Positions 14,966 to 31,708 of a stretch of DNA of 64,000 bases are shown here, piece after piece. The position numbers and the translations under genes were made by a program. Origin of the DNA: a virus (taxonomy: Duplodnaviria; Caudoviricetes); the IMG/VR virus record IMGVR_UViG_3300005439_000018, positions 13,297 to 77,296 of that record; one strand, 5' to 3'. Each line of letters opens with the position of its first letter. Position 1 is the first letter of the stretch. The notes under the pieces were generated by a model. It was given only the letters and a program-made list of their open reading frames with translations, had not been told where the DNA came from and did no database searches.

Positions 14966-15478
14966 ATGGCAGAAAAACCCGTACTGGCGTGGCTGGCCGC
15001 GCTGATCGACGGTGAGGGGTCCGTGATGCTGAACAAGCGGACCTACTCGGGCAATACTGCCTCGACCATGGAGCGCGGGGGCATCCATTACCGGGCCGTG
15101 GTGGTGGTGGCGTGCAACACGGACTACAGGCTGATGGAGGCCATCGGCGACCGGATGGGCGTCGGCCAGATCTACCAGCACCGGATCAACGGGGACCCGA
15201 GAACCCCGCGCAAGCGGGCGCAGTGGACGTACAGGCTTAACGCCGGACAGATCAGGGAGTGGCTTCCCGAGATCCGTCCGTGGCTGGTTCTCAAAGGAGA
15301 ACAGGCCGACCTGCTCATGGAGTCGCTGGACATCAAGACCCAGCTGACACCGGGCAACGCGGGTTTCCTACCGGCGAACCGGCCGCCTCTGCTGGAGCGG
15401 CTCGACGCCATCTACACCGAGATTCGCCGCCTGAACACCAGGGGGCGCGAGACACAGGAAGCGGGTGATGCCAAGTGA
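14966..15478 (+). CDS. Free-standing single-motif LAGLIDADG homing endonuclease
   Basis: LAWLAALIDGEGSV motif; PWLVLKGEQA...L typical of the family; atypical codon usage. Confidence 0.85.
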   Translation: MAEKPVLAWLAALIDGEGSVMLNKRTYSGNTASTMERGGIHYRAVVVVACNTDYRLMEAIGDRMGVGQIYQHRINGDPRTPRKRAQWTYRLNAGQIREWLPEIRPWLVLKGEQADLLMESLDIKTQLTPGNAGFLPANRPPLLERLDAIYTEIRRLNTRGRETQEAGDAK

Positions 15479-16603
15479 GCGGGAAGGTCTACGTTGTTGT
15501 GGGTGGACAGTACGGCTCCGAATTACGAGGGCAAGGGAGCTGTGGCAGGTAGAATCTGCCGAGACCTGGCCGAGCGCGGGCAGCAGGTGATCGGGGTCCG
15601 GATCGGCGGGCCCAACGCGGGGCACACGGTGCTGGGCCGCTGCCCGGCCGACTGCGGCGACGCGGGCGCCCACGGCGCCGGGCCCCGTCCGGCCCACCCG
15701 TGGCGGCTGCGGCAGGTCCCGGTGTCGGTGGTGACGGCGCCGGGGTCGTGGGCCGTGATCGCGGCCGGGTCCGAGGTCGACCAGCGGGTGCTGGAGCGGG
15801 AGATCGTCGAGCTGGACAGCGCCGGGTACAACGCCTCCGGGCGTCTGGCCGTCGACCGGTCGGCGACCATCCTGCACGACGGGAACATCCTGGAGGAGCA
15901 GGCTCTGGAGCTCCAGGCCAGCATCGGCTCGACGGCCAAGGGCATCGGGTCGGCGCGGGCCGCCCGCATCTGGCGGATGGCCAGCACCTGGGGCCAGGCC
16001 ACCGGCGGCGGGTGGGACACGGCGGCCGAGCTGCGGGCCCGGCTGTATGAGGACGACGTGGCCGTGGTCGTCGAGGGCACCCAGGGGTACGGGCTGGGGC
16101 TGCACACCGAGAACTACCCCCGGGTCACCAGCGGCGACTGCCGGGCCGTGGACTTCCTGGCCCAGGCCGGGGTCAGCCCCTGGCAGCAGGGGGTCGGCCT
16201 GCGGGTGCTGGTCTGCCTGCGCCCCTACCCGATACGGGTCGCGGGCAACAGCGGGCCGATGAAGGACGAGACCACCTGGGAGGCGCTGGGGCTGCCCGCC
16301 GAGCACACCACCGTCACCCAGAAGGTCCGGCGGGTCGGCGCCTGGGATCCCGAGCTCGCCCGGGCCGCGATGCTGGCCAACGGGGGCCCGAGCAGGGGGG
16401 TGGTGTGGGCCGCGCTGACCATGATGGACAGCGTCGACCCGGAGCTGGCCGGGGCCGACGGGCACGTTCCGGCGTGGTCCGAGTCGACCGCCCCCAAGTG
16501 CACCCGGGACTACCTGCACTCGTTCGGCTGGAACGCCGGGCACCTGGCCTACGTCGGCACCGGCCCCGACACCGCGCTCGTGAACGAGAGGATCTACCGC
16601 TGA
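15475..16603 (+). CDS. purZ: PurZ/PurZ0-family adenylosuccinate synthetase homolog with a 7-nt coding gap at 15523-15529
   Basis: GTG at 15475 gives MSGKVYVVVGGQYGSE; the +1 frame continues GKG...GGPNAGHT...EGTQGYGL...YPRVTS...RVAGNSGP...TTVTQKVRRVG. Ser replaces the PurA catalytic Asp (GSEGKG versus GDEGKG). Confidence 0.85.
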
Positions 16604-17064
16604 TGACCGACCAGACCAGCACCAGCCCGTACCCGGACGGCGGCGGCCCCGAGGGCCTGGGCGGACCGGCCGGAAGAGGGGCCGTGACGCCGGACCAGCT
16701 GACGATGGGCGACCCGTACGTGGTGGCTGAGAACCCGCTCCCGGGCCCGGCCCTGCCGCCGGGATTCGCCGAGTGGGCCGACCGCTGGTTCGCCCGGGTG
16801 ATACCGGAGACCCAGCGCAAGGCCGCCGAGTACGGCAGCAACAGCCTGAGCAAGAAGGGGTGGCGGCTGGCCCAGGTCCAGGGGCGCCTGGTTGACGGCC
16901 CGGGGGCGCTGCGGCTGGGCGTGGCGCAGTACGCGGTCGAGAAGGCCGACCGGGCCGAGGACGCGATGCTGCGGGGCACTGAGGCCAGCGCCGACACCTG
17001 GTCGGACCTCGCGGTCTACGCCCTGATGCACCTGTACATCTCCGACACCGGGGTGTGGCCGTGA
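16603..17064 (+). CDS. All-alpha NTP-pyrophosphatase-like protein (Nmad1/DUF1599-like)
   Basis: RKAAEYG...EKADR...DTWSDLAVYALM pattern; coupled to purZ. Confidence 0.55.
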   Translation: MTDQTSTSPYPDGGGPEGLGGPAGRGAVTPDQLTMGDPYVVAENPLPGPALPPGFAEWADRWFARVIPETQRKAAEYGSNSLSKKGWRLAQVQGRLVDGPGALRLGVAQYAVEKADRAEDAMLRGTEASADTWSDLAVYALMHLYISDTGVWP

Positions 17065-17100
17065 CCCTGGCGCACCGCGCGCCCGTGGAGCTCTAGCTCC

Positions 17101-17424
17101 GTGGCGCGCAAGACGGGCGGGAATCCGGCAGCCCACCGGGTCCGGATCCCGCCCACCCCCGGTACCCAGCTGTCCACCGGGCTGCACTGGCTGGCCCTGT
17201 CCAGCCGGGGGCGGCTGTCCAACGACGTGATCGCGGCGGCGATCCGGCACCAGCACGAGCGCGACACCGACCCGTCGGTGCTGATCGCGGCGGCGGTGCA
17301 GTACCTGGTGTCCGGGTGCGACTCCGCCGAGGACCGCGTCAACCGGTATTGGCACATAGCCGACCAGGTGTCGGCCCGCGCGAGGGCGCGGTATCTCAAC
17401 ATCGAAGAGGGTGAGCTCATATGA
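17101..17424 (+). CDS. Hypothetical protein
   Basis: GGAG RBS; phage-like codons. Confidence 0.6.
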   Translation: MARKTGGNPAAHRVRIPPTPGTQLSTGLHWLALSSRGRLSNDVIAAAIRHQHERDTDPSVLIAAAVQYLVSGCDSAEDRVNRYWHIADQVSARARARYLNIEEGELI

Positions 17425-18344
17425 GGATGGCGTACCTGGCCGGTCCGATAGACCAGGTGTTCAACCAGTCCCGGGAGTCGGCGCGGGTCTGGGACGAGCT
17501 GCGGTCGCGGGTGGTCCACGACCTGACCGGTGCCGGGTTCGAGGTGTTCCGGCCGGACCGGGCGTTCCACACCGCCAGCCAGTCGGCCGCCATCCAGCGG
17601 GTCAACAACGCCGTGATCGACATGTGCCAGGCGGGGGTGGTGTTCCTGCCCTCGGGCGTCCCGACGCTGGGCACGCCGGTTGAGGTCGAGCGCATGCTGG
17701 CCCGCCGGATGCCGGTGCTGGTGGTCAGCGACGTGCTGTTCTCGGTGCAGCTGGCCGACTGGGCCGACCGGGGGGCGGTGGTGTGCGCCCCGGACCTGGT
17801 GGCCGAGAACCTGATGGTGCTGGCCCGCGCGGTCACCGAGGCCCAGAACCGGCCGACGCTGCGGCGTGCGGCCGAGCAGCTGGCCTCCCAGCTGCGGCAG
17901 GGGAACCCGGCGTTCGGGCCCCGGCCGCTGGTGTTCGAGGCGATGCGGGAGGGGGCGGTGCTGCCCAGCCGGGGCTACGAGGACGACGCGGGGCTGGACC
18001 TGTACGTCAGCGAGGGGGTCGTGATCGAGCCCCACTCGTTCAAGGACGTGCCGTGCGGCGTCTCGGTCGACATCCCGGACGGGTACTGGGGGATGATCAC
18101 CGGCCGCAGCTCGACCCTGCGGCGCCACGGCCTGCTGGTCTCCCAGGGGGTGATCGACGCGGGCTGGACCGGCGAGCTGTTCGCCGGGGTGCAGAACCTG
18201 ACCGACCGTACGGTGGGGATCGGGGCGGGCGACCGGCTGGCCCAGCTGATCCTGCTCCCGGCGCCGGTGCGGGACCGGGCCCCCGAGTGGGGACGGGTGC
18301 CCGCCAAGGCCCGGGGGACCAACGGGTTCGGGAGCACCGGGTGA
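17421..18344 (+). CDS. Nucleoside 2-deoxyribosyltransferase-like domain fused to a trimeric dUTPase-like domain
   Basis: N-terminal YLAGP...F.P...GT.VE (NDT fold); C-terminal AGLDL, GRSS, GVIDAGWTGEL, RLAQL, RGTNGFGSTG. Confidence 0.8.
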   Translation: MRMAYLAGPIDQVFNQSRESARVWDELRSRVVHDLTGAGFEVFRPDRAFHTASQSAAIQRVNNAVIDMCQAGVVFLPSGVPTLGTPVEVERMLARRMPVLVVSDVLFSVQLADWADRGAVVCAPDLVAENLMVLARAVTEAQNRPTLRRAAEQLASQLRQGNPAFGPRPLVFEAMREGAVLPSRGYEDDAGLDLYVSEGVVIEPHSFKDVPCGVSVDIPDGYWGMITGRSSTLRRHGLLVSQGVIDAGWTGELFAGVQNLTDRTVGIGAGDRLAQLILLPAPVRDRAPEWGRVPAKARGTNGFGSTG

Positions 18345-18562
18345 TCGCTCCGGACGGCGGGAGCCGCCGGGACCCGGACGCGGCCCGCCCGGCCCCCATG
18401 TGGGGCCGGGACCCGGTGGTTACCGACGTCCTGTGCAAGGGGTGCGCGTCCCAGCCCGACGGCACCGAGCGGCGGCACTTCCTGCACCGGGTCTACGCGG
18501 GCAAGACGCTGGTGCTGGTGTGCAGCCGCTGCGACGGCGGGCGGCTCAACGGGGTGAAGTGA
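18341..18562 (+). CDS. Small zinc-ribbon protein
   Basis: Two CxxC motifs; coupled. Confidence 0.55.
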   Translation: MIAPDGGSRRDPDAARPAPMWGRDPVVTDVLCKGCASQPDGTERRHFLHRVYAGKTLVLVCSRCDGGRLNGVK

Positions 18563-18581
18563 GGCGCGGGGACAGGTTGGC

Positions 18582-18611
18582 TTGACAGACAGGCAATCCC
18601 TATGGTAGAAT
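18582..18611 (+). promoter_or_regulatory. Sigma-70-type promoter with operator palindrome
   Basis: TTGACA-N18-TAGAAT. Confidence 0.85.
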
Positions 18612-18662
18612 TTCATTCAGAGGGGCCGACAGGCGGCCCCGCCCGATAGGGAGGCACCCGAG

Positions 18663-19310
18663 ATGGCCAAGTCCACCACCGCCCCGAAGACCGAGACGGT
18701 CGTCGAGGAGATCGAGCTCAAGCCGTGCCTGTGCCAGTTCATCGAGATCGAGACGTGGACCGGCGACGTCCCGGACGGCGGCGACCCGAACGACTACGTC
18801 GAGTACATCGGCACCGGATGCAAGGGACGGCTCACCAGCCGGACGTTCGCGCCGGGCCACGACGCCAAGCTCAAGAGCCTGCTGATCCGGGCGGGGGCGA
18901 TGGGCGCCGGGGTCCGCCAGCAGCTCGGCGGCCTGGCCACCGTCGGCGGTGCCCAGAAGGTCGCCGACCAGTTCGGGTTCGGCCACCAGGTCGCCCACGG
19001 CATCGAGCGGGCGCTGGTCGCGGCCGATGCCAAGGCCAACGACAAGGCGGCCAAGGAGCAGGCGAAGGCCGAGGCCAAGGCCGCGAAGAAGGCCGAGGCC
19101 GACGCGGCCAAGGCGGCCTCCCTGGAGGCCGCCAAGCCCAAGAAGGCGGCCAAGGCCGAGCCCGGCCCGGTCAAGGTCCGCATCAAGGTCGGGCCGCGCT
19201 GGCAGTACGACGCGGTGGTCGACACCAAGACCGGCATCGCGACCTACACCACGGCCAAGGGCGAGGTCAAGACGGCCACCGAGGACAAGTGGTCGCTGGT
19301 CACCACGTGA
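18663..19310 (+). CDS. Hypothetical protein with an Ala/Lys-rich linker
   Basis: GGAGG RBS; CxC...C...FAPGHDAKLKS motif seen in actinophage proteins. Confidence 0.75.
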   Translation: MAKSTTAPKTETVVEEIELKPCLCQFIEIETWTGDVPDGGDPNDYVEYIGTGCKGRLTSRTFAPGHDAKLKSLLIRAGAMGAGVRQQLGGLATVGGAQKVADQFGFGHQVAHGIERALVAADAKANDKAAKEQAKAEAKAAKKAEADAAKAASLEAAKPKKAAKAEPGPVKVRIKVGPRWQYDAVVDTKTGIATYTTAKGEVKTATEDKWSLVTT

Positions 19311-19387
19311 GACCGCACCGCCGCCGGACCCCGCCGCGACCACCGGGCGGGGTCCGTCCGTGTCCGGCGGGTACTCCGCCGGGGGGA

Positions 19388-19416
19388 TTGACCACGGGTC
19401 AATCCGGTGGTATGGT
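19388..19416 (+). promoter_or_regulatory. Promoter with operator palindrome
   Basis: TTGACC-N17-TATGGT; GGATTGAC-N5-GTCAATCC inverted repeat. Confidence 0.7.
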
Positions 19417-19468
19417 GGAGGGGAGGGGGTCGGCGTCCGCCGGTCCCACCGACCGGAGGGTGTTCGAC

Positions 19469-19702
19469 ATGATGGCCATCACCGAGGCGCTGGAGAAGCT
19501 GGGGATCCACGACCCGGCCGCTCTGCGGACCCTGCGCACCGTGTTCGCGGTGCTCACCGAGACCGCAGAGTCCGGCGACGAGACGATCGACCTGCTCGGG
19601 CCGCTGGCCCTGTTCGGGTCCCGGACGGCGATCCGGCTGCACCAGCTGCGCGGGGACGCCGAGGCGGTCGCCGGGGTGCTGCTGGACAACCTGGGGGCCT
19701 GA
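19469..19702 (+). CDS. Hypothetical protein
   Basis: GGAGG RBS downstream of the promoter. Confidence 0.6.
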   Translation: MMAITEALEKLGIHDPAALRTLRTVFAVLTETAESGDETIDLLGPLALFGSRTAIRLHQLRGDAEAVAGVLLDNLGA

Positions 19703-19717
19703 CCCCCGGCCAGGGTA

Positions 19718-19746
19718 TTGACACAGAGGCAATACCCTGGTAGGAT
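19718..19746 (+). promoter_or_regulatory. Promoter with operator palindrome, leaderless start
   Basis: TTGACA-N17-TAGGAT, ATG 7 nt downstream; 10-bp inverted repeat CAGGGTATTG/CAATACCCTG. Confidence 0.85.
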
Positions 19747-19752
19747 GTACAT

Positions 19753-19956
19753 ATGGGAAGCAGACATCAGGCAGTGTTGGAGCTGGTACGTGAGATGCGC
19801 CAGCTGGGCTGCGAGGTCCGGCAGGCGAAAAACGGCCACAAGGTCACGCTGCGGGGGGCGTTCGTAGGCACCATCCCGGTCCTGCCGGGGGACCACCGGA
19901 CCATGGAGAACGTCCGCCACCAACTGATCAAGAAGATACCGCAGATCCGCGCGTAG
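19753..19956 (+). CDS. HicA-like small protein
   Basis: 67 aa, LG..V...NGH...T.P..P.D.R...N.R pattern. Confidence 0.55.
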   Translation: MGSRHQAVLELVREMRQLGCEVRQAKNGHKVTLRGAFVGTIPVLPGDHRTMENVRHQLIKKIPQIRA

Positions 19957-19973
19957 TGCGCCCCGACCGAACA

Positions 19974-20001
19974 GCCCCCGGCCCGACGGCCGGGGGCGTT
20001 T
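19974..20001 (+). terminator. Intrinsic terminator
   Basis: GCCCCCGGC/GCCGGGGGC stem followed by GTTT. Confidence 0.6.
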
Positions 20002-20034
20002 GCGTGCCCGGGGGCCCGGCGGTACGCTGGCCCC

Positions 20035-20466
20035 ATGAGCGAAGGTGGCACGCGGCCGGTGGCCGCCCGGCTGTACCAGAGTCCGGCGGACTCCGGCGCG
20101 GCCCCCCAGTCCGACTACACCCCGCCGGGACGGCCCGCCCCGCGCGACCCGGCACAGTCCCTCGGACTGCGGCGGAACAGCCCCGAGGAGGCCTCCGACA
20201 GCCACCGGACGGACCCCACCCCATCCGTGGGCGCCCAGGTGTCCCACAGGCTCTCCGGAGCCCGGGGAGAGGTTGTCGGGCACCAGCACCACGGATACGG
20301 CCCCGCCCTCCCCACCGTCAGGTGGGAGGGCGAGGAAGCCAGCTGGCCCCAGGGTGTCTCGGCCAACGCGCTGCGGGTCGAGGGCAGCACCCCCAACGAC
20401 CTGTACCGGTACGACCAGGACGCCACCTCCAGCCGCCCGCTGAACCGGAACACGGGGGCCCAGTGA
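20035..20466 (+). CDS. Hypothetical protein with an SH3-like repeat domain
   Basis: VSHRLSGARGEVVG...PTVRWEG. Confidence 0.6.
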   Translation: MSEGGTRPVAARLYQSPADSGAAPQSDYTPPGRPAPRDPAQSLGLRRNSPEEASDSHRTDPTPSVGAQVSHRLSGARGEVVGHQHHGYGPALPTVRWEGEEASWPQGVSANALRVEGSTPNDLYRYDQDATSSRPLNRNTGAQ

Positions 20467-20735
20467 TGGCCAACAGGGCCTACACCCCCGGCGACCCCGC
20501 CGGTCTGCGCAGTACCCGCGACGCCATCCCGCAGGCCGCCGACGGCACCGGCGAGACCGCGCGGCTGGCGATCGGGGACAGGGTCCGGCACGTCCTTAGC
20601 GGAGCTCAGGGCGAGGTGGTGGACCTGCACGCCGACCCGTTCGTGAAGGACGTCACCCACGGTATCGTGAACTGGACCGGCGACGGCGACGGGTTCGGCC
20701 AGGGCTACAGCAGCACGAGCCTGACCAAGTTCTAA
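20466..20735 (+). CDS. Hypothetical protein with an SH3-like repeat domain
   Basis: RVRHVLSGAQGEVVD...IVNW. Confidence 0.6.
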   Translation: MANRAYTPGDPAGLRSTRDAIPQAADGTGETARLAIGDRVRHVLSGAQGEVVDLHADPFVKDVTHGIVNWTGDGDGFGQGYSSTSLTKF

Positions 20736-20790
20736 CCGGACGGGGTAGACTGGGGGGCGCGATCCCGCCCCCGACAGACTGGAGTACCCC

Positions 20791-21015
20791 GTGGCTGTGG
20801 AAGCCCGATTCAACTGCGACGTCAAGAACGTCATCGACCAGGTGTCCTGCGACGTCCGGCTGTCCGCCTCGATCTCGGGCCGCGACAACACCGAGTGGGC
20901 CCCGTACACCCCGTCCGGCCAGATCACCATGGTTATCAACGGCGCGGCCGGTGCCGAGTTCGTGCAGGGCGGCCGGTACCGCGTCACCTTCGAGCGGCTC
21001 GAGGACGGCCAGTGA
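20791..21015 (+). CDS. Hypothetical protein
   Basis: ENxxW-like TPSGQITMVI...F..G..Y.VTF pattern common in phage proteins. Confidence 0.65.
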   Translation: MAVEARFNCDVKNVIDQVSCDVRLSASISGRDNTEWAPYTPSGQITMVINGAAGAEFVQGGRYRVTFERLEDGQ

Positions 21016-21278
21016 GGCGGCCGGTGGTCGGCGAGACCGTCCACTACGTCAGCCACGGCACCCCGACGCGCACCGACGGTACCCGGGCCTTCGAGTCGGT
21101 GTGCCGGGCTGCGATCGTCACCGAGACCAGCCAGGACCCGGACGGCCCCGGCCGGGGGTGGTTCGCCAGCCTGGCCGTGCTGAACCCGTCCGGCATGTTC
21201 TTTCAGGAGGGCCTGGCCCTGGACGCCGACGGCCCCTATTACGCGCCGGGTACCTGGCACCCGGTCCACCCGTCGTGA
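21012..21278 (+). CDS. Hypothetical protein
   Basis: RPVVGETVHYV...RAAIVT...GTWH pattern common in phage proteins. Confidence 0.65.
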   Translation: MRRPVVGETVHYVSHGTPTRTDGTRAFESVCRAAIVTETSQDPDGPGRGWFASLAVLNPSGMFFQEGLALDADGPYYAPGTWHPVHPS

Positions 21279-21526
21279 GCGAGTCGATCGGGGACGCCAT
21301 CTCCCAGCGGATGGTCGAGGTCAGCGGCGAGGACGGCGTCCTGACCGAGTGGCTGTGCATCGGCGTCCGCCAGACGCTGGACGAGGACGGCACCCCGCAG
21401 ACGGGCGTCGGTGTCCTGATGTCGGACGAGTCGATGCCGCTGTTCAAGGTGCTGGGCATGCTGGACTACGCCCAGACCGCCTACCGGGCCCGCCTGGCCC
21501 GGTTCACGCAGGGGGACGACGAGTGA
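21275..21526 (+). CDS. Hypothetical protein
   Basis: Coupled start. Confidence 0.6.
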   Translation: MSESIGDAISQRMVEVSGEDGVLTEWLCIGVRQTLDEDGTPQTGVGVLMSDESMPLFKVLGMLDYAQTAYRARLARFTQGDDE

Positions 21527-21924
21527 CCCTCCGGCTGCCCGTCACCATGCTGGCCGACATCATCCGCCACGTCGACCGAGAGCACCCGAACGAGGCGTGC
21601 GGCGTGATCGGCGGGTCGCCCAACGGGACCCTGGTCGAGGTGATCCCGATGACCAACGCCGACGCGTCGCCGGACTGGTTCCGGCTGGACCCCGAGCAGC
21701 AGATGCTGGTCTGGCAGGACCTGGAGTACCGGGGGCTGCGGCCGGTGGTGCTGTACCACAGCCACACCGCCACCCCCGCCGTCCCCAGCCGGACGGACGA
21801 GGCGTTCGCGGCCGACCACCCCGACTCGGTGTTCCTGATCGTGTCGGCCCGGGACGGCATGGCCCGGTGCTTCCGGACCGAGGGCGGGCGGCTGGTCGAG
21901 GAAGACGTCGATCTGGTCGTCTGA
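21523..21924 (+). CDS. JAB/Mov34 (MPN+) metalloisopeptidase
   Basis: EACG...YHSHT...PSRTD: complete JAMM motif E...HxH...S..D. Confidence 0.9.
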   Translation: MTLRLPVTMLADIIRHVDREHPNEACGVIGGSPNGTLVEVIPMTNADASPDWFRLDPEQQMLVWQDLEYRGLRPVVLYHSHTATPAVPSRTDEAFAADHPDSVFLIVSARDGMARCFRTEGGRLVEEDVDLVV

Positions 21925-21999
21925 CGCGGCCCGGCGCACACATGCCACTCCCCCCGACCGGATGCCCGGCGGGGGGAGTGGTGTAGGGGGGCGGGCGGG

Positions 22000-22431
22000 T
22001 CACCAGTCGGGGTGGACCGCCTTGCGCAGCTCGCCCAGCGCGTGCTCGGCCCCGGCCTCGTAGGCCATCGCCCAGGTGGCGAACTGAACCGACCGGAACC
22101 CGCACGCGCAGGTGGACCGCATCGTGTGGGGGCTGTCCTTGGCCACCTTGAAGTGATGCAGCGCCGGGTTGCTGCCGGGCGGGGGGACCGGGCTGCGGAA
22201 CCACAGCCGGACGCCCTGCCAGCGCACGGCCCCCAGGCTGTCGATGCTGGCCTGCGCCAGCGCCTGGTCGCCCTCGCGCACCATCGTGATGAACTTGTCC
22301 CGGCCGAACGGCTGGGTGGCCTTGACCGACCAGTTGCCGCTCATCGGCAGCATCTCTCCGTCGTGGATCGGCTCGACCGAATCGCCGACCTGGGGGGTGA
22401 CGTGCCCGATCTGCATCTCGTATTCGTCCAT
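22000..22431 (-). CDS. Hypothetical protein
   Basis: AGGAGG RBS behind a promoter; CACG...H motif. Confidence 0.6.
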   Translation of the reverse strand: MDEYEMQIGHVTPQVGDSVEPIHDGEMLPMSGNWSVKATQPFGRDKFITMVREGDQALAQASIDSLGAVRWQGVRLWFRSPVPPPGSNPALHHFKVAKDSPHTMRSTCACGFRSVQFATWAMAYEAGAEHALGELRKAVHPDW

Positions 22432-22474
22432 CGGGTTCCTCCTGTCGCGGGGCCGCCCCTCGGCCCCCGGTTCC

Positions 22475-22503: not shown

Positions 22504-22531
22504 TATCGACAGGGGGGCGCCCCGCCGCCGG

Positions 22532-24330: not shown

Positions 24331-24380
24331 TTCGTGCTCCTTCGGCCGGGGCGGTCCGGGATGGACCGCCTCCAACCTCC

Positions 24381-24409
24381 ATTCTACCACGGACTTGACA
24401 CGCTGTCAA
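24381..24409 (-). promoter_or_regulatory. Promoter with perfect operator palindrome
   Basis: TTGACA-N17-TAGAAT; CTTGACA-CGC-TGTCAAG. Confidence 0.85.
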
Positions 24410-24413
24410 GGGG

Positions 24414-24911
24414 CTAGTTCTGGCACTCCAGGTTGGCCGGGGCCGGGGTCACCACCCTGTCGATCTTGATGATGTTGGGGTACCAGGACATCCACGGGAC
24501 ACGCCACCCCCGGGACACGAACTCGACCACCGACCCCGGGCACAGCTCGTTCGTGAAGTCGCTACTGTTCCGCTTGCCCGCCAGCAGGCTGTCGTTGTTG
24601 GCGAACACCCCGTCGCTGGTGTACACCAGCGTCTGGCACGAGTAGCTCTTGCCGGTGCCGGAGCAGTGGTCGGCCACCCGGTTGATGTGGGCCGTGTGCG
24701 TACTGGTGGACCTCCGGTAGTCGGCGACCCCCCACACGGCCAGGCCCGCCAGGCCCGCCGCCAGCACCAGCCCGCACCCGATCGCGATGTTCCGGGCGCG
24801 GTTCTGGCGCTCCTGCTCCCGGCGCCGGGATTCGGCCAGCCTCTCGCGGGCGGTCGGCGGGGAGACGATCAGCGGGGTGCGGTCGTCGTCGAACCGGTAC
24901 TTGTACTCCAT
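24414..24911 (-). CDS. Single-pass membrane protein (DUF1523-like)
   Basis: TM helix, then VYTSDGVFANNDSLL...NSSD...GWRVPW.SWYPNII. Confidence 0.6.
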   Translation of the reverse strand: MEYKYRFDDDRTPLIVSPPTARERLAESRRREQERQNRARNIAIGCGLVLAAGLAGLAVWGVADYRRSTSTHTAHINRVADHCSGTGKSYSCQTLVYTSDGVFANNDSLLAGKRNSSDFTNELCPGSVVEFVSRGWRVPWMSWYPNIIKIDRVVTPAPANLECQN

Positions 24912-24964
24912 GTTGCCCTCCCTCAGGCGGGGGCGCCGGACTGCCCGGCGCCCCGGATGGTGCG

Positions 24965-25486
24965 TCAGTGCGGGTGGTGGTGCAGCTCGCCGACCGTGAC
25001 CAGGCAGACGGACTGGCCACCGGCCAGGCACCACTCCCCCTGTGCCGTGTGGTGGCGCGGCACCTTGTTCGAGCCCCACCGGATCTTGGTCCGGCGGGTG
25101 CACTTGTGGCAGTCGTACTCGGTCGGCGGCTGGGCGGGGGTGGTGTCCGGCTTCCGGAACTTGTCCAGCAGGTGTGCCGGGGCGCCTTTGGCCGTGTACA
25201 CGCTGATGTGGACGCGGTAGCTCACGCCCTCGCCGGAGTCGTGCCGCTCGTAGATCCACCCCTTCTTCCTCAGTACGTCCTCGGTCTCGTCCGCCAGCTC
25301 GCGCCGGAGCTTGGGCGACCAGACCTCGAACGTCAGGAACGCGTACGGCTTCAGCCCGTAGCGCGCGTTGGCCACCCTGACCCCGCGCGGCCTGTCCCCG
25401 ACCCGGTTCGACCAGCGCGCCACCGGCACGCCGTTCTCCCGCAGCGCCCGGGAGACGTTGCTGCACCACCCGCTGCCGCCCGCCAT
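24965..25486 (-). CDS. Hypothetical protein with a C-terminal zinc ribbon
   Basis: AGGAGG RBS; CHKC...H...C. Confidence 0.6.
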   Translation of the reverse strand: MAGGSGWCSNVSRALRENGVPVARWSNRVGDRPRGVRVANARYGLKPYAFLTFEVWSPKLRRELADETEDVLRKKGWIYERHDSGEGVSYRVHISVYTAKGAPAHLLDKFRKPDTTPAQPPTEYDCHKCTRRTKIRWGSNKVPRHHTAQGEWCLAGGQSVCLVTVGELHHHPH

Positions 25487-25703
25487 GCTGCCACCTCCTG
25501 TCCGGGGGCGGCTCAGACGGCCACCCGCACGGCCCATCCAACCACCGGCTTGCCTCGGAGTCAAGTACGGGAGGCGTGGTGCCGGTGAAACCGCGTGTGG
25601 TAGAGTCGTCTCCATACCGCCGCCGCACCAAGGCTCTGCGGAGCACAGGGCAGCTGGTAAGACTGACCCCGGTGATCGTAACCAGGTACGGCGGCGGAGG
25701 CAA

Positions 25704-25780
25704 AGCGGCGTGGAGCAGTTCGGTAGCTCGCTTGGCTCATAACCAAGAGGTCTCGGGTTCAAATCCCGACGCCGCCACCA
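25704..25780 (+). tRNA. tRNA-Met(CAT), initiator-like
   Basis: Cloverleaf with an A1/C72 mismatch, A11-U24, anticodon stem CTTGG/CCAAG with loop CTCATAA, T loop TTCAAAT, A-CCA. Confidence 0.92.
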
Positions 25781-25975
25781 CCCACCGACGATGTTGGTAA
25801 GCTCGACCGCTCCCCCTGGGCGCCCAGGGACCGGAGCGCGCGGCCTAAGACACCGGGTCGCGGGTGCTGCGGGCCGCCGGTCCCCGAATTCCGGCCAGTG
25901 CGGCCCCCTCAGTGCCCTCAGGCAGACGAGGGGGCCGCACTTGTGTCTGCGGGCGGCCGGGCGTAGCCTGGTCGC

Positions 25976-26266
25976 ATGGACACCGCCGACAGCCGCGCCC
26001 TGGACGTGTACGAGGGCGGTACTGTGAACTCCGGCCCGCACTACGGCAACCAGCCCAACGTGAAGCCCGCCGACGACAGCACGGGCGTACCCGCTGAGGG
26101 CAGCCGCGTGCGGCACCTCCGGTCCGGTGAGACCGGCACCGTAACCGGCGTCCACGTCCACGGCCATTCGGGCGAACGGATGCCCACCGTACGCTGGGAC
26201 AGCCAGCCCGCCACCGGGTTCACCTCCGACCAGGGCTACTCGCTGGACAGCCTCACAAACCCGTAG
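25976..26266 (+). CDS. Hypothetical protein with an SH3-like repeat domain
   Basis: RVRHLRSGETGTVTG...PTVRWDS. Confidence 0.6.
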   Translation: MDTADSRALDVYEGGTVNSGPHYGNQPNVKPADDSTGVPAEGSRVRHLRSGETGTVTGVHVHGHSGERMPTVRWDSQPATGFTSDQGYSLDSLTNP

Positions 26267-26449
26267 GTAGACTGATCCTCTCGTCCGACAAAGCCGTGTC
26301 CGGGCTACCGGGGAGGGCGACACAGGTCGACCTCGCAGCTGCCTCCGGTCCTGGGCCGACCCAGGCTCGACGGAGCCAGGACGAGCGCGGGCGGTCGTGC
26401 CGCCAAGTCGGGACCCACGGTGGCCGAAAGCACGTGGGACCCGGCGCCC

Positions 26450-26525
26450 TGGCCCGTAGCTCAGTAGGCAGAGCGCCGCACTGTTAATGCGGACGTCGCA
26501 GGTTCGACCCCTGCCGGGCCAGCCA
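26450..26525 (+). tRNA. tRNA-Asn(GTT)
   Basis: TGGCCCG/CGGGCCA, GCTC/GAGC, CCGCA-CTGTTAA-TGCGG, GCAGG-TTCGACC-CCTGC, G-CCA. Confidence 0.95.
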
Positions 26526-26935
26526 GCAAAACCCCTGTGGTACCGTGGTATCACGCGCCGCAGGGACCACCCGAGGGACGACCCCACGAAGGGTGAGCCG
26601 CTTAGTCAGCGGATACCGCTGCGGTTAAGAGCACCAGGGAAGACCGTGCGCACGGGCCGGGCATGGTACCGGCGGACCTGGTGTGGAGCTGGACGGCGGT
26701 TGCGGATTGGGGGTGTCGCCCCCGTGAGTCGACCGCCGAGCCAGCCACCCCCGAGCCGGTGTCCGTAAATGCACCGTGGCGGGGTTTGCACAGCGGCGGG
26801 AACAACCCGGCACCGGCCTAAGGTGGATTGGGCAGGGGCAGCCTCAACCCGTAAGCACCCGTGTGAAGCCGTACCTTCTTAGGGCGAGGGACGAAGCTGG
26901 TGCCGGGCCCGCCGCACGCATGTTAGTCTGGGCGC

Positions 26936-27217
26936 ATGACTTCCGTACACGCCACGCCGCCGGTCGCGGGTACGCCGCCTGTGTACCCGTTCGCCGAGTG
27001 GCTTGACGGCCAGCGGTGGACGCTGAACCGGGGGCGCGACTTCTGGGGCCCGCCCCGCGACTTCGCCCGCCGCATCCAGGCCAGCGCCCGAGCCCGCCGC
27101 CTGGTCCTATTCATGCGCTACGAGCCGGACGGCCAATACATCGAGCTGTGCGCCACCCCCCGCCCCTCGGCCGAGTCCGCCGTCCCCGTGGTAAAGATCG
27201 AGGACGCCGATGCCTAG
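26936..27217 (+). CDS. Hypothetical protein
   Basis: YPFAEWLDG..W.L..G.DF motif seen in actinophage proteins. Confidence 0.65.
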   Translation: MTSVHATPPVAGTPPVYPFAEWLDGQRWTLNRGRDFWGPPRDFARRIQASARARRLVLFMRYEPDGQYIELCATPRPSAESAVPVVKIEDADA

Positions 27218-27458
27218 GATGACCGCCGCCCAGCGGTACCTGCACCGCAAGTATCGGCAGGCCGTGCGCGCCCGCCAGCAGGCCGAGCAGCTGGAGCAGC
27301 GCAGGCTGCTGGACGAGCGGTACCGACAGATCGGTGACCACCCCAACGACTGGGTGCTGACCGTCGAGAGGCACAACGTCGCTCCCAAGACCACTCTCGG
27401 ACGCGTCGTCGAAGAGCGCGGACGGCCGGGCGGGGGTGGTGTAGATGGCCACGGGTGA
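27210..27458 (+). CDS. Hypothetical protein
   Basis: Coupled ORF. Confidence 0.5.
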   Translation: MPRMTAAQRYLHRKYRQAVRARQQAEQLEQRRLLDERYRQIGDHPNDWVLTVERHNVAPKTTLGRVVEERGRPGGGGVDGHG

Positions 27459-27996
27459 GCCGCGCACCCCGGCGGCCATCGCCCGGTTCGAGCGGGAGAA
27501 GGCTAACCAGAGGAAGCTCCAGCGCGAAGTGCTGGAGCTGCGCAAGGCCGGATACTCCTACTACCGGATCGCCCAGGTCCAGGGATGCTCGACCCGCACC
27601 GCCCTGAACCGGTACAAGCGCGCGATCGCCCGGGACATCCCGGAGGAGGAGATCATCGAGGCGCGCAAGCTGGAGCTGGACCGGTACGACGAGATCACCG
27701 TCATGAACATGGCGCTGCTGGCCCGCGCGTTCGAGGCCGGGGACGTCGAGACGTTCTGCAAGATCCAGGACCGTATCAACGGCGTGCACGACCGGCGCCG
27801 GATGATGATCCCGATCCAGGTAAACCCCAAACTGGTCATCGAGCAGGAGACCACGCTGCGGACGGCCCAGGACAGCGAGCTCGCCGACCTGCTGGGCAAG
27901 GCTGCCAACGACGTCGAGGACAAGGTCCGGTGGCTCACCGAGCAGTACGGCGGGGTTGGGCCCGACCCCATCGTGCCCGGTGAACCGATGGGGTAG
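27445..27996 (+). CDS. Probable terminase small subunit (HTH)
   Basis: LELRKAGYSY..IA...G.S HTH, then ELDRYD helical region; upstream of the packaging genes. Confidence 0.7.
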   Translation: MATGEPRTPAAIARFEREKANQRKLQREVLELRKAGYSYYRIAQVQGCSTRTALNRYKRAIARDIPEEEIIEARKLELDRYDEITVMNMALLARAFEAGDVETFCKIQDRINGVHDRRRMMIPIQVNPKLVIEQETTLRTAQDSELADLLGKAANDVEDKVRWLTEQYGGVGPDPIVPGEPMG

Positions 27997-28006
27997 GGTA
28001 GGCCGC

Positions 28007-28282
28007 ATGACCGAGGCCGACCAGGAGCTGACCGACGCGGTGGACAGGTATCTGCACCGCGCCGGTCTGATCTTCGACGATTCAGACCAGACCGGACTGA
28101 CACTGACCGATGTGATGTTGGTGACCGTCCGGTGCGGATTCGACCAGCTGGGCAGCAAGTCCCAGACGTCAGTCATCACCCCTACAGACTCGTCCGTCCC
28201 CATCCTCATTGGCATGGCGAGGTACGCCTCGATCCGGTTCGAGAGCATGGCGGAGGGGTCGTTCCCGAAAGAGGGCGGCTGA
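28007..28282 (+). CDS. Hypothetical protein
   Basis: ORF in a coupled block. Confidence 0.55.
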   Translation: MTEADQELTDAVDRYLHRAGLIFDDSDQTGLTLTDVMLVTVRCGFDQLGSKSQTSVITPTDSSVPILIGMARYASIRFESMAEGSFPKEGG

Positions 28283-28668
28283 TGACCGCCACCACGGCCG
28301 CCCGGCTGGACCCCGAGGTGCCGCTGTTCAGATACCGCACCGGCCAGGTGTGGGAGCAGACCCGCATGCAGCTGGCCAGCCCCCGGCCCGACGGCGCCGT
28401 TGCCTACTACCAGGACAGCCTATCCCGCCTGCACCCGGTCTCCTGGCGCCCCCGGTTCGACGACGAGTCGGCCCGCGCCCTGTGCCAGTACGTCCGGGCG
28501 CTGGCCGACAAGGCCGGGCTGGAGGTCGTCGAGGGCCCGTTCCTCCAGGTGCTGGAGGACGACGGTGCGACCCCGCCCGGCTACGCCATGTTGCGCGCCA
28601 TCGTCTGGGTCGAGGAATACGACCTGGTGGTGCCGGTCGACGGGGGGGCGGCCGATGGCCCAGCATGA
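28282..28668 (+). CDS. Hypothetical protein
   Basis: TGATG coupling. Confidence 0.6.
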   Translation: MTATTAARLDPEVPLFRYRTGQVWEQTRMQLASPRPDGAVAYYQDSLSRLHPVSWRPRFDDESARALCQYVRALADKAGLEVVEGPFLQVLEDDGATPPGYAMLRAIVWVEEYDLVVPVDGGAADGPA

Positions 28669-28870
28669 GGGCGTGCTCCGCCAGTTCGCCATCTCGGCCG
28701 ACGGAGACGTCGACCCCGATACCGGCCACATCCAGGTGTGGGCCGTGCTCACCCACCTGCCGTGCGGCGCCCCTCTGTGGGGCGACGGCGGCGACCAGCT
28801 CGTCATGCGGGCCGACCAGCTGTTCCAGTTGATGTATGACCACAGGTGCAAGGAGACCACTAATGGCTGA
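28655..28870 (+). CDS. Hypothetical protein
   Basis: Overlapping ORF. Confidence 0.5.
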   Translation: MAQHEGVLRQFAISADGDVDPDTGHIQVWAVLTHLPCGAPLWGDGGDQLVMRADQLFQLMYDHRCKETTNG

Positions 28871-29078
28871 GCGTCTGACCGCACCGGCCGCGCACCTGGT
28901 CACCGTCGAATGTGCGGAGGGAGGGGGTGGTGTACTGGTCGCGCACGCGCTGTGCAACGACCCGGCCGTGTTCGTGCCGAACCGCCCCAACAGCCGTGCC
29001 GTGCTGGCCATCGACATCATCCAGGCCGTGCTCGGCCACCGCTGCCCGCCCGGCCAGGGCGACGACCCCGAGAGATGA
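28863..29078 (+). CDS. Hypothetical protein
   Basis: AAGGAG RBS. Confidence 0.5.
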   Translation: MAERLTAPAAHLVTVECAEGGGGVLVAHALCNDPAVFVPNRPNSRAVLAIDIIQAVLGHRCPPGQGDDPER

Positions 29079-29082
29079 CCCG

Positions 29083-29799
29083 GTGATCTACGACCCCGAC
29101 CCGGGACCGATGTCGGTCGGCCCCACTCCAACCGACCTTACCGACATGCTCGACCAGATGGGTACCGACCCCCGGACGCAGAATGAGGTCACCCGCGAGG
29201 TCAACAAGCTGGCCGCGATCATGGGCAGGGGCCACATGGACGCGGTCGCCGACTGGGCGGCAAAGTGGGCCGACCGGTCCCGGGCCGCCTTCGGGCACCC
29301 GTCCACGTTCGACCCTCACGCCAACGTTCCCATCTATCTGCACCTGGATGTCTCGGTCGGCATCCGGGTGCAGCTGGAGGGAGCGGTGTGGCAGTACCGC
29401 CAGGACGTCGACCCGTGGATGTGGACCATGGAGTTCACAGACCCGGTCCAGCGGGAGAGCTTCCTCCAGCATTTCATCAAGACCGCACTCGGTGCGCTGG
29501 CCGCCCACGACGACAAGGCGCTGCGCTTCTTCCTGAAGCGCGTGTTCGTGGTGACGCCCGAGGATGCCCACGACACCCCCGTGTGCCGCGAGAGCCACGC
29601 GGAGGGCTTCTCGGAATGGCCCCGGTGCCTGGACGGGGTGGTGCTGTCCGAGCTTCCCGGAGTGTCTCCCGTGCCCGGCGCGGGTGCCTCCGCGCACCAG
29701 CGGTTCCGCGATATCGCCCGGGGGGTCTGCCCCTGCCGCTGCCACCCGTTCCCCGCCCAGCGGAAGCGCCTGGTCCCCGGGCTGGGGTGGTATCGGTGA
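29083..29799 (+). CDS. Hypothetical protein
   Basis: Phage-like codons; C-terminal CPCRCH. Confidence 0.6.
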   Translation: MIYDPDPGPMSVGPTPTDLTDMLDQMGTDPRTQNEVTREVNKLAAIMGRGHMDAVADWAAKWADRSRAAFGHPSTFDPHANVPIYLHLDVSVGIRVQLEGAVWQYRQDVDPWMWTMEFTDPVQRESFLQHFIKTALGALAAHDDKALRFFLKRVFVVTPEDAHDTPVCRESHAEGFSEWPRCLDGVVLSELPGVSPVPGAGASAHQRFRDIARGVCPCRCHPFPAQRKRLVPGLGWYR

Positions 29800-30272
29800 G
29801 GCGCGACCGGTTCACCGACCCCGGCATGAACGGCGATTTCCTGCGGCTGGTGGCCGAGCGCGTCTGTGTCCGGTTGCAGATCGACCGGGATTTCATCCAC
29901 AGTATCGAGATGACGGAGCTCCCCAACCTGCTGGGCGACCGGCTGGCCGTGCTGCTGGAGGCCCGGATCTACGGGGAGAAGCTGCCACCGGTTACCAAGA
30001 CCCACACCATCGAGATCCCGGCCGACTGGCGCCAGCACTGGAAGCGCGATCACGCCGATGTCTGGTGGGCCCGGTGGTGGGTCCGGCGCCACCCGCCCCG
30101 GCTGTGCAAGGAGACCCTGAGCACCACCTGGGACGCCCGGGCCAGCTACCCGTGGCTGCGGGCACGGACCCAGCCGGTGCCGTCCGACTTCGGACAGGCC
30201 GTGTTCGTCCACCTGCCGCCCCAGTCCAGCTACACCAGCGAGTACCTGGGCGTGAGGGACCAGAACCTGTGA
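29796..30272 (+). CDS. Hypothetical protein
   Basis: GTGA overlap; Trp-rich PADWRQHWK. Confidence 0.6.
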   Translation: MRRDRFTDPGMNGDFLRLVAERVCVRLQIDRDFIHSIEMTELPNLLGDRLAVLLEARIYGEKLPPVTKTHTIEIPADWRQHWKRDHADVWWARWWVRRHPPRLCKETLSTTWDARASYPWLRARTQPVPSDFGQAVFVHLPPQSSYTSEYLGVRDQNL

Positions 30273-30401
30273 ACGCCCGCGACTTGGGTCAGGGCCGACT
30301 GCGGCGCAGCCTGGACCCCGGCGCCCCCACACCACCCTCCCCCTATTCGCCGTTTCCGCCGGGCGTCGAATGGGGGAGGGTGGTATACGGGCCCCGCCGA
30401 C

Positions 30402-30890
30402 GTGTACCCTGGTGGCGTGACCGGATCCGCCGACGCCGCAGGTGGCGATAACCTCAACGCCACCCGCCGCGACCGCATGTCCAAGGGCTGGCCGTCGGAC
30501 GTGGGGTCGGCCAAGGACGACCCGTCGGCGGCCCAGGGCGTCAACCAGTGGCCGGGAGCCAACCGGACGACCAACAGGCAGCCCAGCGCTCTGGAGTACC
30601 AGACCTATGAGACGGTCCCCGGCCAGCAGCAGCACGTCACCCACGACAACCGCGTCGTGGGCTATGTCCAGAAGTACGCAGACCCCGGCCACGGGCCCCT
30701 GTGGTCGGGCGTCCTGCACCCCGACGTGCACGCCCTCAACCCTACCCACTCCGCCAATCAGCGCGGTTTCGTCCACGCGGCCGACGCCGCCCACTGGGTT
30801 ATGGACCGCCACCGCGACGTGGCCCAGATCGAGAACGTCGGCAACTGGCGCCCCGCCCCGGGCGGGGGACCGAATCTTCCGGGACATTGA
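30402..30890 (+). CDS. Hypothetical protein (start uncertain)
   Basis: Open frame with phage-like codons. Confidence 0.5.
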   Translation: MYPGGVTGSADAAGGDNLNATRRDRMSKGWPSDVGSAKDDPSAAQGVNQWPGANRTTNRQPSALEYQTYETVPGQQQHVTHDNRVVGYVQKYADPGHGPLWSGVLHPDVHALNPTHSANQRGFVHAADAAHWVMDRHRDVAQIENVGNWRPAPGGGPNLPGH

Positions 30891-30891
30891 C

Positions 30892-31104
30892 GTGGACCAC
30901 CCCGACGGCTTCCTGACCGCCGAGCAGTTCTACCGGTCGATCGAGGCGGTGGAGCGCCAGCCAACGAACCCCGCACAGTACCTGATGCTGCCCGACTGGT
31001 TTCCCGCCGCCCAGCGCGACTTTGCCGACGAATGGGCGAAGCAGCACGGCTGGGCGGGGGTGGCGTACCACACCCGGACCAAGAGAGGCCGCCCCTGTGT
31101 CTGA
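30892..31104 (+). CDS. Hypothetical protein
   Basis: Short ORF before the HNH gene. Confidence 0.45.
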   Translation: MDHPDGFLTAEQFYRSIEAVERQPTNPAQYLMLPDWFPAAQRDFADEWAKQHGWAGVAYHTRTKRGRPCV

Positions 31105-31519
31105 GAGTCCAGAGGAGAGGCGCCGGAAGGCCCGCGACCGCCAGCGAGATAAGCGGTCTACCCCGGAAGGCCGCCGTGCTTGGAATGATCGACATAATGA
31201 GCGCACTCGTGAGGCACGCCGCAAGTTGCGCCTGTTGGTTCTGGATTACTATGGTGGGGCGTGTGCGTGCTGCGGCGAGAGTCGAGAGCCGTTTCTGGTC
31301 ATCGACCACATGGACGGTGGCGGAAACGACCACCGCGAGGAGATCAAGCCGTCTGCCACGCACGGCAGGGGCGGCGGTGGAGCGCACATGTATAAGTGGC
31401 TCGTGGCGAACGACTTCCCGCCCGGGTTTCAAGTGCTGTGCGCAAACTGCAACATGGCCAAGGATCGTCCGGGCGGATGCCCGCATACCTGGAAGGAGGA
31501 CCAACACCACTATGACTGA
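31097..31519 (+). CDS. Free-standing HNH homing endonuclease
   Basis: YGGACACCGE...IDHMDGGG...LCANCNMAK; atypical codon usage. Confidence 0.88.
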   Translation: MSESPEERRRKARDRQRDKRSTPEGRRAWNDRHNERTREARRKLRLLVLDYYGGACACCGESREPFLVIDHMDGGGNDHREEIKPSATHGRGGGGAHMYKWLVANDFPPGFQVLCANCNMAKDRPGGCPHTWKEDQHHYD

Positions 31520-31708
31520 CAAGGGCAAGAGCGGCGAAGGGCACAAGAGCCCCGGGCCGATGCACTCGAAGGCGCAGTGGCGACAATAGGCTTCCTGTTC
31601 GCCACCAAGAAGCCGTTCGCCCACAAGTGGGCCGAACAGGTCGTGGCCGAGCGCGGGCCCAAGACCGGCTACCGCAGCCTTCCCGAGCGCAAGGGCGCAC
31701 ACAGGTGA
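31512..31708 (+). pseudogene. Small basic phage protein split by an 8-nt insertion containing TAG (pseudogene or recoded)
   Basis: MTDK...SKAQWR, then CAATAGGC, then FLFATKKPFAHKWA...LPERK in another frame. The joined product matches the SKAQxRxxFA...WA...LPER phage family pattern. Confidence 0.6.

Follow-up and report, generated by a model that had tools for sequence, protein, structure and literature searches.

Why would a phage genome hold two homing endonuclease genes, of unrelated families, each ending directly on a gene whose reading frame breaks shortly after its start? This arrangement is found twice in a 64,000-nucleotide (nt) stretch of viral DNA (the window), which comprises bases 13297-77296 of the 77,296-bp IMG/VR record IMGVR_UViG_3300005439_000018 – a record with terminal repeats that is rated complete. 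At the first site a LAGLIDADG-type gene runs into purZ, and at the second an HNH-type gene runs into a small conserved gene of the packaging region (Table 1). A first-pass annotation of this DNA had read the two sites as nuclease genes coupled to micro-insertions that are bypassed, and our analysis supports that reading as a whole. We propose that the insertions are probably nuclease-linked translational bypass gaps, across which ribosomes would hop with some efficiency and which would protect the carrier from cleavage.

At the purZ site, the stop codon of the nuclease gene (TGA, 15476-78) overlaps the purZ start (GTG, 15475), and the insert lies 48 nt into purZ, as first annotated. The nuclease scored below the Pfam cut-off for LAGLIDADG_1 (E 0.0025; 19.1 bits against a cut-off of 23.1) and matched phrog_5046 (E 2.6e-13), a PHROG family labeled 'HNH endonuclease'. 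It has more than 50 homologs at 40-72% identity, and residues D15, G16, E17, and G18 of its LAALIDGEGS motif are invariant in 38 of them. Every close homolog examined lies directly 5' of a purZ gene. The nuclease gene is absent from the syntenic relatives L005/G001 and from G002, and the full-length relatives G001 and G002 have an intact purZ.

The purZ break falls within the P-loop codons (GSE|GKG), which in the window read TCC GAA (TTACGAG) GGC AAG, with GAATTAC as an equivalent parse of the gap. The motif is uninterrupted in relatives (QYGSE|GKG or QYGSE|AKG) – for example, Streptomyces phage Keanu encodes ...GAQYGSEAKG... and L005 has the codons GGA CAG TAC GGG TCC GAG GGC AAG GGA. Because these codons are contiguous in relatives, the window allele contains exactly 7 extra nt. 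The segment that precedes the gap corresponds to VGKLIVVAGAQYGSE in Keanu and MASNLYVVVGGQYGSE in L005. Past this segment, the 0 frame encodes LRGQGSCGR and then a stop, so ribosomes that do not hop would end at TAG 15550-52. The segment that follows the gap is 60-66% identical to the intact PurZ of L005, G001, and G002.

PurZ proteins have a PurA fold in which a serine replaces the catalytic aspartate of the P-loop. With the gap skipped, the window P-loop reads GSEGKG, and the PurA fold, the serine, and the location in a nucleotide-metabolism block all match PurZ. The nearest annotated genes carry the label 'PurA-like / 2-aminooxy adenylosuccinate synthetase'. The foreign look of the 5' codons of purZ, remarked on at first pass, is borne out by the G+C content of third codon positions (GC3). 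This value is 0.69 in segment 1 and 0.62 in 15530-15577, the first 16 codons of segment 2, where codon usage is still atypical; codons 1-32 thus contrast with the rest of the gene, at 0.98-1.00.

At the second site, the stop codon of the HNH-type gene (TGA, 31517-19) overlaps the ATG of the small gene (31512), and the insert lies 72 nt into the gene, again as first described. The HNH-type open reading frame (ORF) has no Pfam match; its homologs (61-79% identical) likewise directly precede this small gene, and it is absent at this site in 9 relatives. Its GC3 is 0.71 and its codon score is lower than that of every background window. The 0 frame of the small gene ends ...SPGPMHSKAQWR, followed by Q and a stop, and the protein resumes in the +2 frame as FLFATKKPFAHKW..., continuing to 31708. 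The break lies between TGG CGA and TTC, within AQWR|FLFA. Since KAQWR|FL is contiguous – it is uninterrupted in 12 relatives – the window allele has 8 extra nt. In the 0 frame these read CAA TAG, and the triplet before the resume codon TTC, GGC, could pair with the CGA-reading tRNA at positions 2 and 3. The segment after the gap is 69-89% identical to relatives and belongs to no Pfam family.

Table 1. Features of the two nuclease-linked sites in the window, and gaps found at the same codons in relatives (gap sequence in parentheses between the flanking codons; aa, amino acids).
Feature	Positions	Strand	Sequence or content	Evidence
LAGLIDADG-type homing endonuclease gene	14966..15478	+	170 aa, single LAALIDGEGS motif	Pfam sub-threshold; phrog_5046
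purZ segment 1	15475..15522	+	GTG start to take-off codon GAA (15520-22); encodes VSGKVYVVVGGQYGSE	translation
purZ gap, window, 7 nt	15523..15529	+	GAA (TTACGAG) GGC	contiguous P-loop codons in relatives
purZ segment 2	15530..16603	+	GKGAVAGRIC... to stop, 357 aa, +1 frame	Adenylsucc_synt E 6e-21 (Pfam)
possible hairpin, purZ gap in loop	15511..15544	+	stem UACGGCUCC / GGAGCUGUG	-13.6 kcal/mol, z -1.96; weak
HNH-type homing endonuclease gene	31094..31519	+	141 aa	phrog_2255 E 2.8e-8
small conserved gene segment 1	31512..31583	+	ATG to CGA; encodes MTDKGKSGEGHKSPGPMHSKAQWR	translation
small-gene gap, window, 8 nt	31584..31591	+	CGA (CAATAGGC) TTC	contiguous codons in relatives
small conserved gene segment 2	31592..31708	+	FLFATKKPFAHKWAEQVVAERGPKTGYRSLPERKGAHR, then stop	phrog_1375 E 5.1e-9
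possible hairpin, small-gene gap in loop	31577..31605	+	stem GUGGCGA / UCGCCAC	-15.4 kcal/mol, z -1.77
purZ gap, L056			GAA (TTATGAA) GGC	
purZ gap, L057 (= L050)			TCC (TTATGCC) GAG	
purZ gap, L060			GAA (TTAGAA) GGT, in frame	
purZ gap, L061			TCT (TGACT) GAG	
purZ gap, L063			GAA (TGACCGAG) GGT	
purZ gap, L066			GAG (AAACGTG) GCG	
purZ gap, L053/L054			TCC (TAGCT) GAA	
small-gene gap, L011			CGA (ATAGA) TTC	upstream Endonuclease_7-family gene, PF02945, E 7.5e-13
small-gene gap, L136/L137			CGA (CATTAACCGT) TTC	HNH 79% identical
small-gene gap, L138			CGA (CATTAGC) TTC	HNH 74% identical
small-gene gap, L139/L140			CAG (TTACGCGG) TGG CGC	HNH 61% identical

The first-pass reading implied that gap and nuclease should go together in relatives, and at both loci we found a strong correlation. 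A gap at the same purZ codons was present in 8 of 14 nuclease-bearing alleles and 0 of 20 nuclease-free alleles (Fisher 1.7e-4), and the small-gene gap in 5/5 nuclease-bearing and 0/9 nuclease-free alleles (Fisher 5e-4) – p-values that overstate significance, since the alleles share ancestry and are not phylogenetically independent. Nineteen of the 20 nuclease-free purZ alleles were collected from viral contigs with the pattern QYGSE-(0-14 nt)-GKGA, which requires the Glu codon; these 19 have no gap and none of four nuclease types nearby. Relatives of the small gene were collected through the large terminase gene and a degenerate DNA pattern, and its nine distinct nuclease-free, uninterrupted alleles are L008/L014, L009, L010, L012, L013, L016, L020/L021, L024, and L028. 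Two further candidates, apparent 7- and 12-nt 'gaps' in L025 and L017, were rejected as chance pattern matches with unrelated flanks.

All purZ gaps lie within the codons for Q[YF]GS-E-[GA]KG. A nuclease directly 5' of the target gene is also found in L011, L050, L053, L056-L066, and L136-L140. The claim that two unrelated nuclease families are involved holds, and a third can be added: in L011 an Endonuclease_7 gene precedes a 5-nt gap at the same codon junction of the small gene.

The gaps are reproducible across assemblies. A separate JGI contig (Ga0207663_10000072; 50,073 bp) contains both window gaps letter for letter, the Logan assembly SRR5456976 gives the same gene calls, and homologous gaps were found in many JGI, ENA, and Logan assemblies. 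The JGI contig has 4 base differences from the window within 15605-15610 and is otherwise identical over 3.5 kb. Since this contig, though independent and different at bases close by, has identical gaps, assembly artefact is excluded in practice. The assembly collection indexes the gapped phage L053/L054 in 38 of its blocks.

Seven of the eight purZ gaps open, in the 0 frame, on TTA (four) or on a stop (TGA in two, TAG in one), and the eighth opens on AAA (binomial 3e-8 to 3e-7). In the small gene, TTA or a stop is found within the first two codons of 4/5 gaps. Among the 22,314 predicted codons of the window's genome there is not a single TTA. Gap lengths are 5, 5, 6, 7, 7, 7, 7, and 8 nt in purZ and 5, 7, 8, 8, and 10 nt in the small gene, and they cover all three frame classes within one cassette family. 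Because one hop mechanism fits all of these lengths and no single shift direction does, hopping is favored over frameshifting.

The gap ends also match the codons that precede them. Take-off codon and landing triplet are fully cognate in the window purZ (GAA/GAG, with the landing GAG at 15527-29 and TTA as the next 0-frame codon after take-off), L056 (GAA/GAA), L060 (GAA/GAA), L063 (GAA/GAG), and L136 (CGA/CGT). Most others can pair at positions 2 and 3 (TCC to GCC or GCT; TCT to ACT; CGA to GGC, AGC, or AGA); in L066 (GAG to GTG) and L139 (CAG to CGG) pairing is confined to positions 1 and 3. All four landing triplets that follow a CGA take-off have the form NG[A/C/T], which would fit a tRNA-Arg with inosine at position 34. 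The in-frame L060 allele (1116-1160 of Ga0335073_10268113) has the classical hop arrangement, TCC GAA TTA GAA GGT AAG, and reads GSELEGKG if translated normally and GSEGKG if hopped.

Downstream of the gap, every gapped purZ allele that is long enough to tell has an open resume frame of 329-345 codons, L063 from a low-GC genome included. Gapped alleles occur on both sides of the deepest split in the nuclease tree, and the nucleases can be as little as 38-42% identical, so the gap has persisted, or arisen again, in a gene that remained intact.

These observations point to the following model. A homing endonuclease cassette would consist of the nuclease gene, a recoded 5' end of the next gene, and a 5-10-nt gap placed in the most conserved codons of the invaded gene. 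The gap interrupts sequence that nuclease-free alleles keep whole, presumably the recognition or cleavage site, so the carrier would be immune to its own nuclease with its protein unchanged. A fraction of ribosomes would bypass the gap, and the protein would still be made. With a slow codon (TTA) or a stop in the A site, peptidyl-tRNA would leave its take-off codon (GAA in purZ; CGA in the small gene), re-pair with a compatible triplet at the gap end (GAG; GGC), and decoding would restart at GGC or TTC, respectively. Such a hop would restore GSEGKG and AQWRFLFA exactly, giving proteins that span the junctions VYVVVGGQYGSEGK and AQWR-FLFATK. The first-pass annotation had supposed that the inserts are removed by recoding or by RNA-level excision; the TTA and stop starts, the lengths, the landing triplets, the L060 arrangement, and the intact ORFs support the former.

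Several observations weigh against a hop of this kind. At the small gene, CGA is followed in the window by CAA, rare (13 occurrences vs 888 for CAG) yet decodable, and in L136 and L138 by CAT, which is not expected to be slow. Take-off at this CAA or CAT, before the stop, would leave poorly pairing landing triplets; we therefore tentatively prefer CGA as the take-off codon. As for the in-frame L060 allele, it could reflect a P-loop in which two extra residues are tolerated. A gap is not obligatory, as 6/14 nuclease-bearing purZ alleles are ungapped, with the P-loops GSEGKG, GSEAKG, GSESKG, GSTGKG, GSVGKG, and GSCGKG. Cultured Arthrobacter phages likewise carry an HNH gene 5' of purZ and no gap: in the Korravirus phages BigMack (L142, 1426-2999) and Wayne (L143, 1405-3003) an HNH gene 45% identical to that of the window lies directly 5' of purZ, with a spacer of ~40-65 nt, and the P-loop is intact (GGQFGSEAKG), so that the Korravirus phages examined offer no culturable example of a gap. 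Finally, the hairpins at both gaps are weak (z ~-1.8 to -2.0). At purZ, 4/200 shuffles fold equally well and the arms consist of P-loop codons, which gap-less alleles have as well; the arms at the small gene also occur in L011 and in gap-less alleles and are no evidence alone. Given the weak z-scores and the native-codon arms, we did not use the hairpins as evidence.

Nucleases of at least two families seem to use the purZ 5' end as a hot spot. In three of the ungapped nuclease-bearing alleles (L052, L055/L058, and L059) the P-loop Glu is replaced by Thr, Val, or Cys. This Glu is retained in 20/20 nuclease-free alleles, though 19 were retrieved by the Glu-requiring pattern. Glu replacement may be an alternative way of immunizing the target site.

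An unlikely explanation is that the genes are simply broken, the gaps being repair scars or immunizing mutations that became fixed by preventing self-cleavage, with loss of PurZ and the small protein tolerated or complemented by co-infecting relatives. Every gap but one is out of frame, selfish elements can impose such costs, and the ends of the gaps show microhomology in keeping with a mutational origin – a microhomology-mediated insertion would also leave a landing triplet that matches the take-off codon. Scars would not, however, start with TTA or a stop in 7/8 cases, and the same pattern would not be expected in two unrelated genes. Nor would broken genes account for gaps that persist across nuclease divergence to 40-70% identity while the downstream ORFs remain open, or for the wide distribution of gapped phage L053/L054. 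Because in-frame immunizing changes are available and used in other alleles (GSTGKG, GSVGKG, and GSCGKG), a lethal or costly break would be out-competed.

We give marginally less credence to ribosomal frameshifting, which would have to be +1 for gaps of 7 and 10 nt and +2 or -1 for those of 5 and 8 nt. Each product would then contain one to three additional residues where the segments meet, such as GSE-YE-GKG in the window PurZ. A hungry A-site TTA is a textbook cause of +1 shifts, Tyr-Glu is what the +1 frame encodes in both the window and the L056 gap, and GSELEGKG in L060 suggests that two extra residues might be tolerated. For the terminase gene of phage phiHau3, discussed below, a conserved-junction argument and mass spectrometry favored bypass over frameshifting (PMC10732093). 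In the present alleles, frameshifting would require three shift sizes within one cassette family and would place extra residues in the most conserved motifs of both proteins, and no P-site codon can re-pair after a +1, -1, or +2 slip.

Excision of 7-8 nt from the mRNA as a mini-intron, an option in the first-pass annotation, or an artefact of assembly or sequencing – the record is a metagenome assembly – is very improbable: we know of no RNA-splicing mechanism for 5-10-nt inserts in bacteria or phages, the gaps have no common sequence or structure, and they recur in independent assemblies, within a genome of long frames in which we found no other breaks. A group I intron or intein was also considered and rejected, as the N-terminal segments follow the nuclease genes and adjoin the gaps, with no second upstream copy.

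How would translational bypass gaps of this kind relate to known systems? Utilized translational bypassing was long known from one phage gene, T4 gene 60, and from yeast mitochondria. The gene 60 bypass and its homing endonuclease element, encoding the HNH enzyme MobA, were reportedly described by Huang in 1988 and Bonocora in 2011. The MobA element of T4-like phages comprises a replacement coding segment followed by the gene 60 gap of 50 nt (20 nt in one clade), and the T4 gap protects against nicking by MobA (10.1101/2022.08.31.505936; PMC5009743). The window cassettes resemble this element in that the nuclease ORF lies directly 5' of the interrupted segment, with its end overlapping the segment's start, and in that a short element-borne replacement coding stretch of foreign composition is followed by a gap that is absent from nuclease-free alleles. 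A stop or slow codon after take-off and a matched landing site are a further likeness, full at purZ and partial at the small gene, where CGA to GGC pairs at positions 2 and 3 alone and the stop is the second codon.

The differences from the T4 system are nonetheless considerable. Gap length here is 5-10 nt as against 50 (or 20) nt, and the gaps share no sequence homology with gene 60; 16 or 24 codons precede them, and there is no dedicated take-off stem-loop or nascent-peptide signal. Here the nuclease is intergenic and does not split the gene, the nucleases are of LAGLIDADG, non-MobA HNH, and Endonuclease_7 type, the targets are purZ and a small packaging-region gene, and the hosts are presumably high-GC actinobacteria; for the window cassettes, bypass and protection are presumed. 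Given the different nucleases, the missing homology, and the missing 50-nt signal, the window cassettes are analogs of MobA/gene 60, not members by descent, and their gaps are of the phiHau3 type.

UUA-led gaps in the large terminase gene of Streptomyces phage phiHau3, 10 nt long there, and of two prophages were reportedly described by Smith and colleagues in 2013. Bypass was proposed for phiHau3 in that year, and in 2023 a full-length product was found in Streptomyces and a junction peptide in E. coli; the gaps were read as a regulatory sensor of the host bldA tRNA, and no nuclease was discussed (Antonov et al. 2023, PMC10732093). Like the gaps described here, they are frame-disrupting, 7-10 nt long, have UUA at the 5' end, and lie in conserved parts of actinophage genes whose flanks are contiguous in counterparts. 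In both cases UUA is nearly unused, by the host group and in the window's genome alike, and in both bypass is preferred over frameshifting since the junctions are conserved. The purZ gap TTACGAG has the UUA-led, 7-10-nt form; the small-gene gap, which opens with CAA TAG, does not, and its homolog in L139 starts with TTA. Unlike the phiHau3 gaps, those described here lie in other genes, many are led by a stop instead of UUA, and the terminase gene is unbroken (32241-33941 in the window). Here, moreover, every gap sits 48-72 nt past a homing endonuclease gene and none occurs where the nuclease is missing, whereas the sole annotated HNH gene of phiHau3 lies ~1.4 kb upstream of its terminase gene.

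Two further systems are comparable, as far as they are described in the review that cites them (PMC5009743). In the 'stop-hops' and hungry-codon bypassing of E. coli (Weiss et al. 1987; Gallant & Lindsley 1998), a stop or starved codon stands between matched codons and peptidyl-tRNA re-pairs +5 to +9 nt downstream; L060 (GAA UUA GAA) and L056 (GAA UUAU GAA) have exactly that form. Those hops concern laboratory constructs or low-level errors, whereas the gaps here are natural, conserved, and located in presumably needed genes. The byps of Magnusiomyces capitatus mitochondria are translationally bypassed mobile inserts (Lang et al. 2014) – many short non-coding inserts in essential genes that ribosomes skip, with an unused codon in the A site. 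As described there, they differ in being 27-55 nt long, mitochondrial, and themselves mobile, with no tie to homing endonucleases. In the literature, of which our coverage was incomplete, we found no paper that reports purZ gaps or that connects homing endonucleases with short gaps led by UUA or a stop.

The window and its relatives together provide 13 distinct short gaps in two unrelated genes, behind three nuclease families, with none found without a nuclease. The T4 gene 60 and phiHau3 cases could thus be joined in one principle, by which a selfish nuclease immunizes its carrier with a few unreadable bases in its own target. Whether homing endonucleases in general use short hops of 5-10 nt as an efficient, evolvable means of immunity – a 'minimal intron substitute' with which any family could break its own target within the most conserved codons of whatever gene – is in our view evenly balanced. 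The gaps are compact natural substrates, of 60-100 nt, for the study of short hops, with take-off, A-site, and landing codons that vary, and they should predict the target sites of uncharacterized nucleases. There is also a caution for annotation: a frame that breaks shortly after a nuclease gene in a high-GC phage is probably no sign of a pseudogene.

PurZ makes the DNA base 2-aminoadenine (Z). Because purZ is one of the affected genes, Z-genome synthesis in the gapped phages may depend on the hop. If hops are indeed so general a device, the frequent UUA trigger would also make the output of an invaded gene depend on how much of a rare tRNA the host provides – a control of the bldA type. Many phage genes that adjoin nucleases and appear frameshifted would then be intact and recoded, and natural stop-hops, long sought, would be common in high-GC phages.

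Elsewhere in the window, we looked for comparable breaks. The frame map consists of long unbroken frames, and comparison with the 72 ORFs of a complete relative gave no other mid-gene frame break, though short N-terminal breaks in genes without a relative could escape such a comparison. A search for other in-frame TTA codons with a frame change after them yielded two weak antisense artefacts alone. Like the first-pass annotation, we thus found no further unexplained breaks in the window. An apparent break relative to G001 (50335-50355) was discarded as an ordinary ATGA gene junction.

The window has a G+C content of ~70%, and its purZ is nearest to that of Streptomyces phages of the genus Hiyaavirus, at ~67% nucleotide identity; it therefore represents an uncultured actinophage, with soil as the likely source. 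Megablast against cultured phages gave no match, and the LAGLIDADG-type gene was found in no cultured actinophage, the search returning distant Caulobacter phage matches alone. A dUTPase-like gene lies downstream of purZ. The window encodes four tRNAs – Asp-GTC (59-136), Pro-CGG (11512-11601), Met-CAT (25704-25780), and Asn-GTT (26450-26525) – and no tRNA-Leu(UAA). The Met-CAT gene is possibly of the Ile-lysidine type.

The junction 5' of the small gene holds other variable elements. A short ORF (...LMLPDWFPAAQRDFADEWAKQHGWAGVAYH...; 30872-31104) lies between the upstream conserved gene and the HNH-type gene, and it has homologs in L010 and L011, not in L008 and L012. At this site relatives hold varied, unrelated, non-nuclease ORFs, such as those at 1264-2586 in L009 (440 aa, with an HEFGH motif), ~796-1551 in L016, and ~205-855 in L013, which marks it as a general insertion hot spot.

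A third nuclease gene of the same genome lies outside the window, near the genome start, on the minus strand (G000:C1, ~243-700; L149). It is Endonuclease VII-like (...HVDHDRSCC...CPGCNQGLG...). The gene directly downstream of it is unbroken, and the first ~14 codons of that gene draw on rare ones (GGT, CGT, GTA, GCT, CCT, GGA, and GAA); here a target site may have been recoded without a gap.

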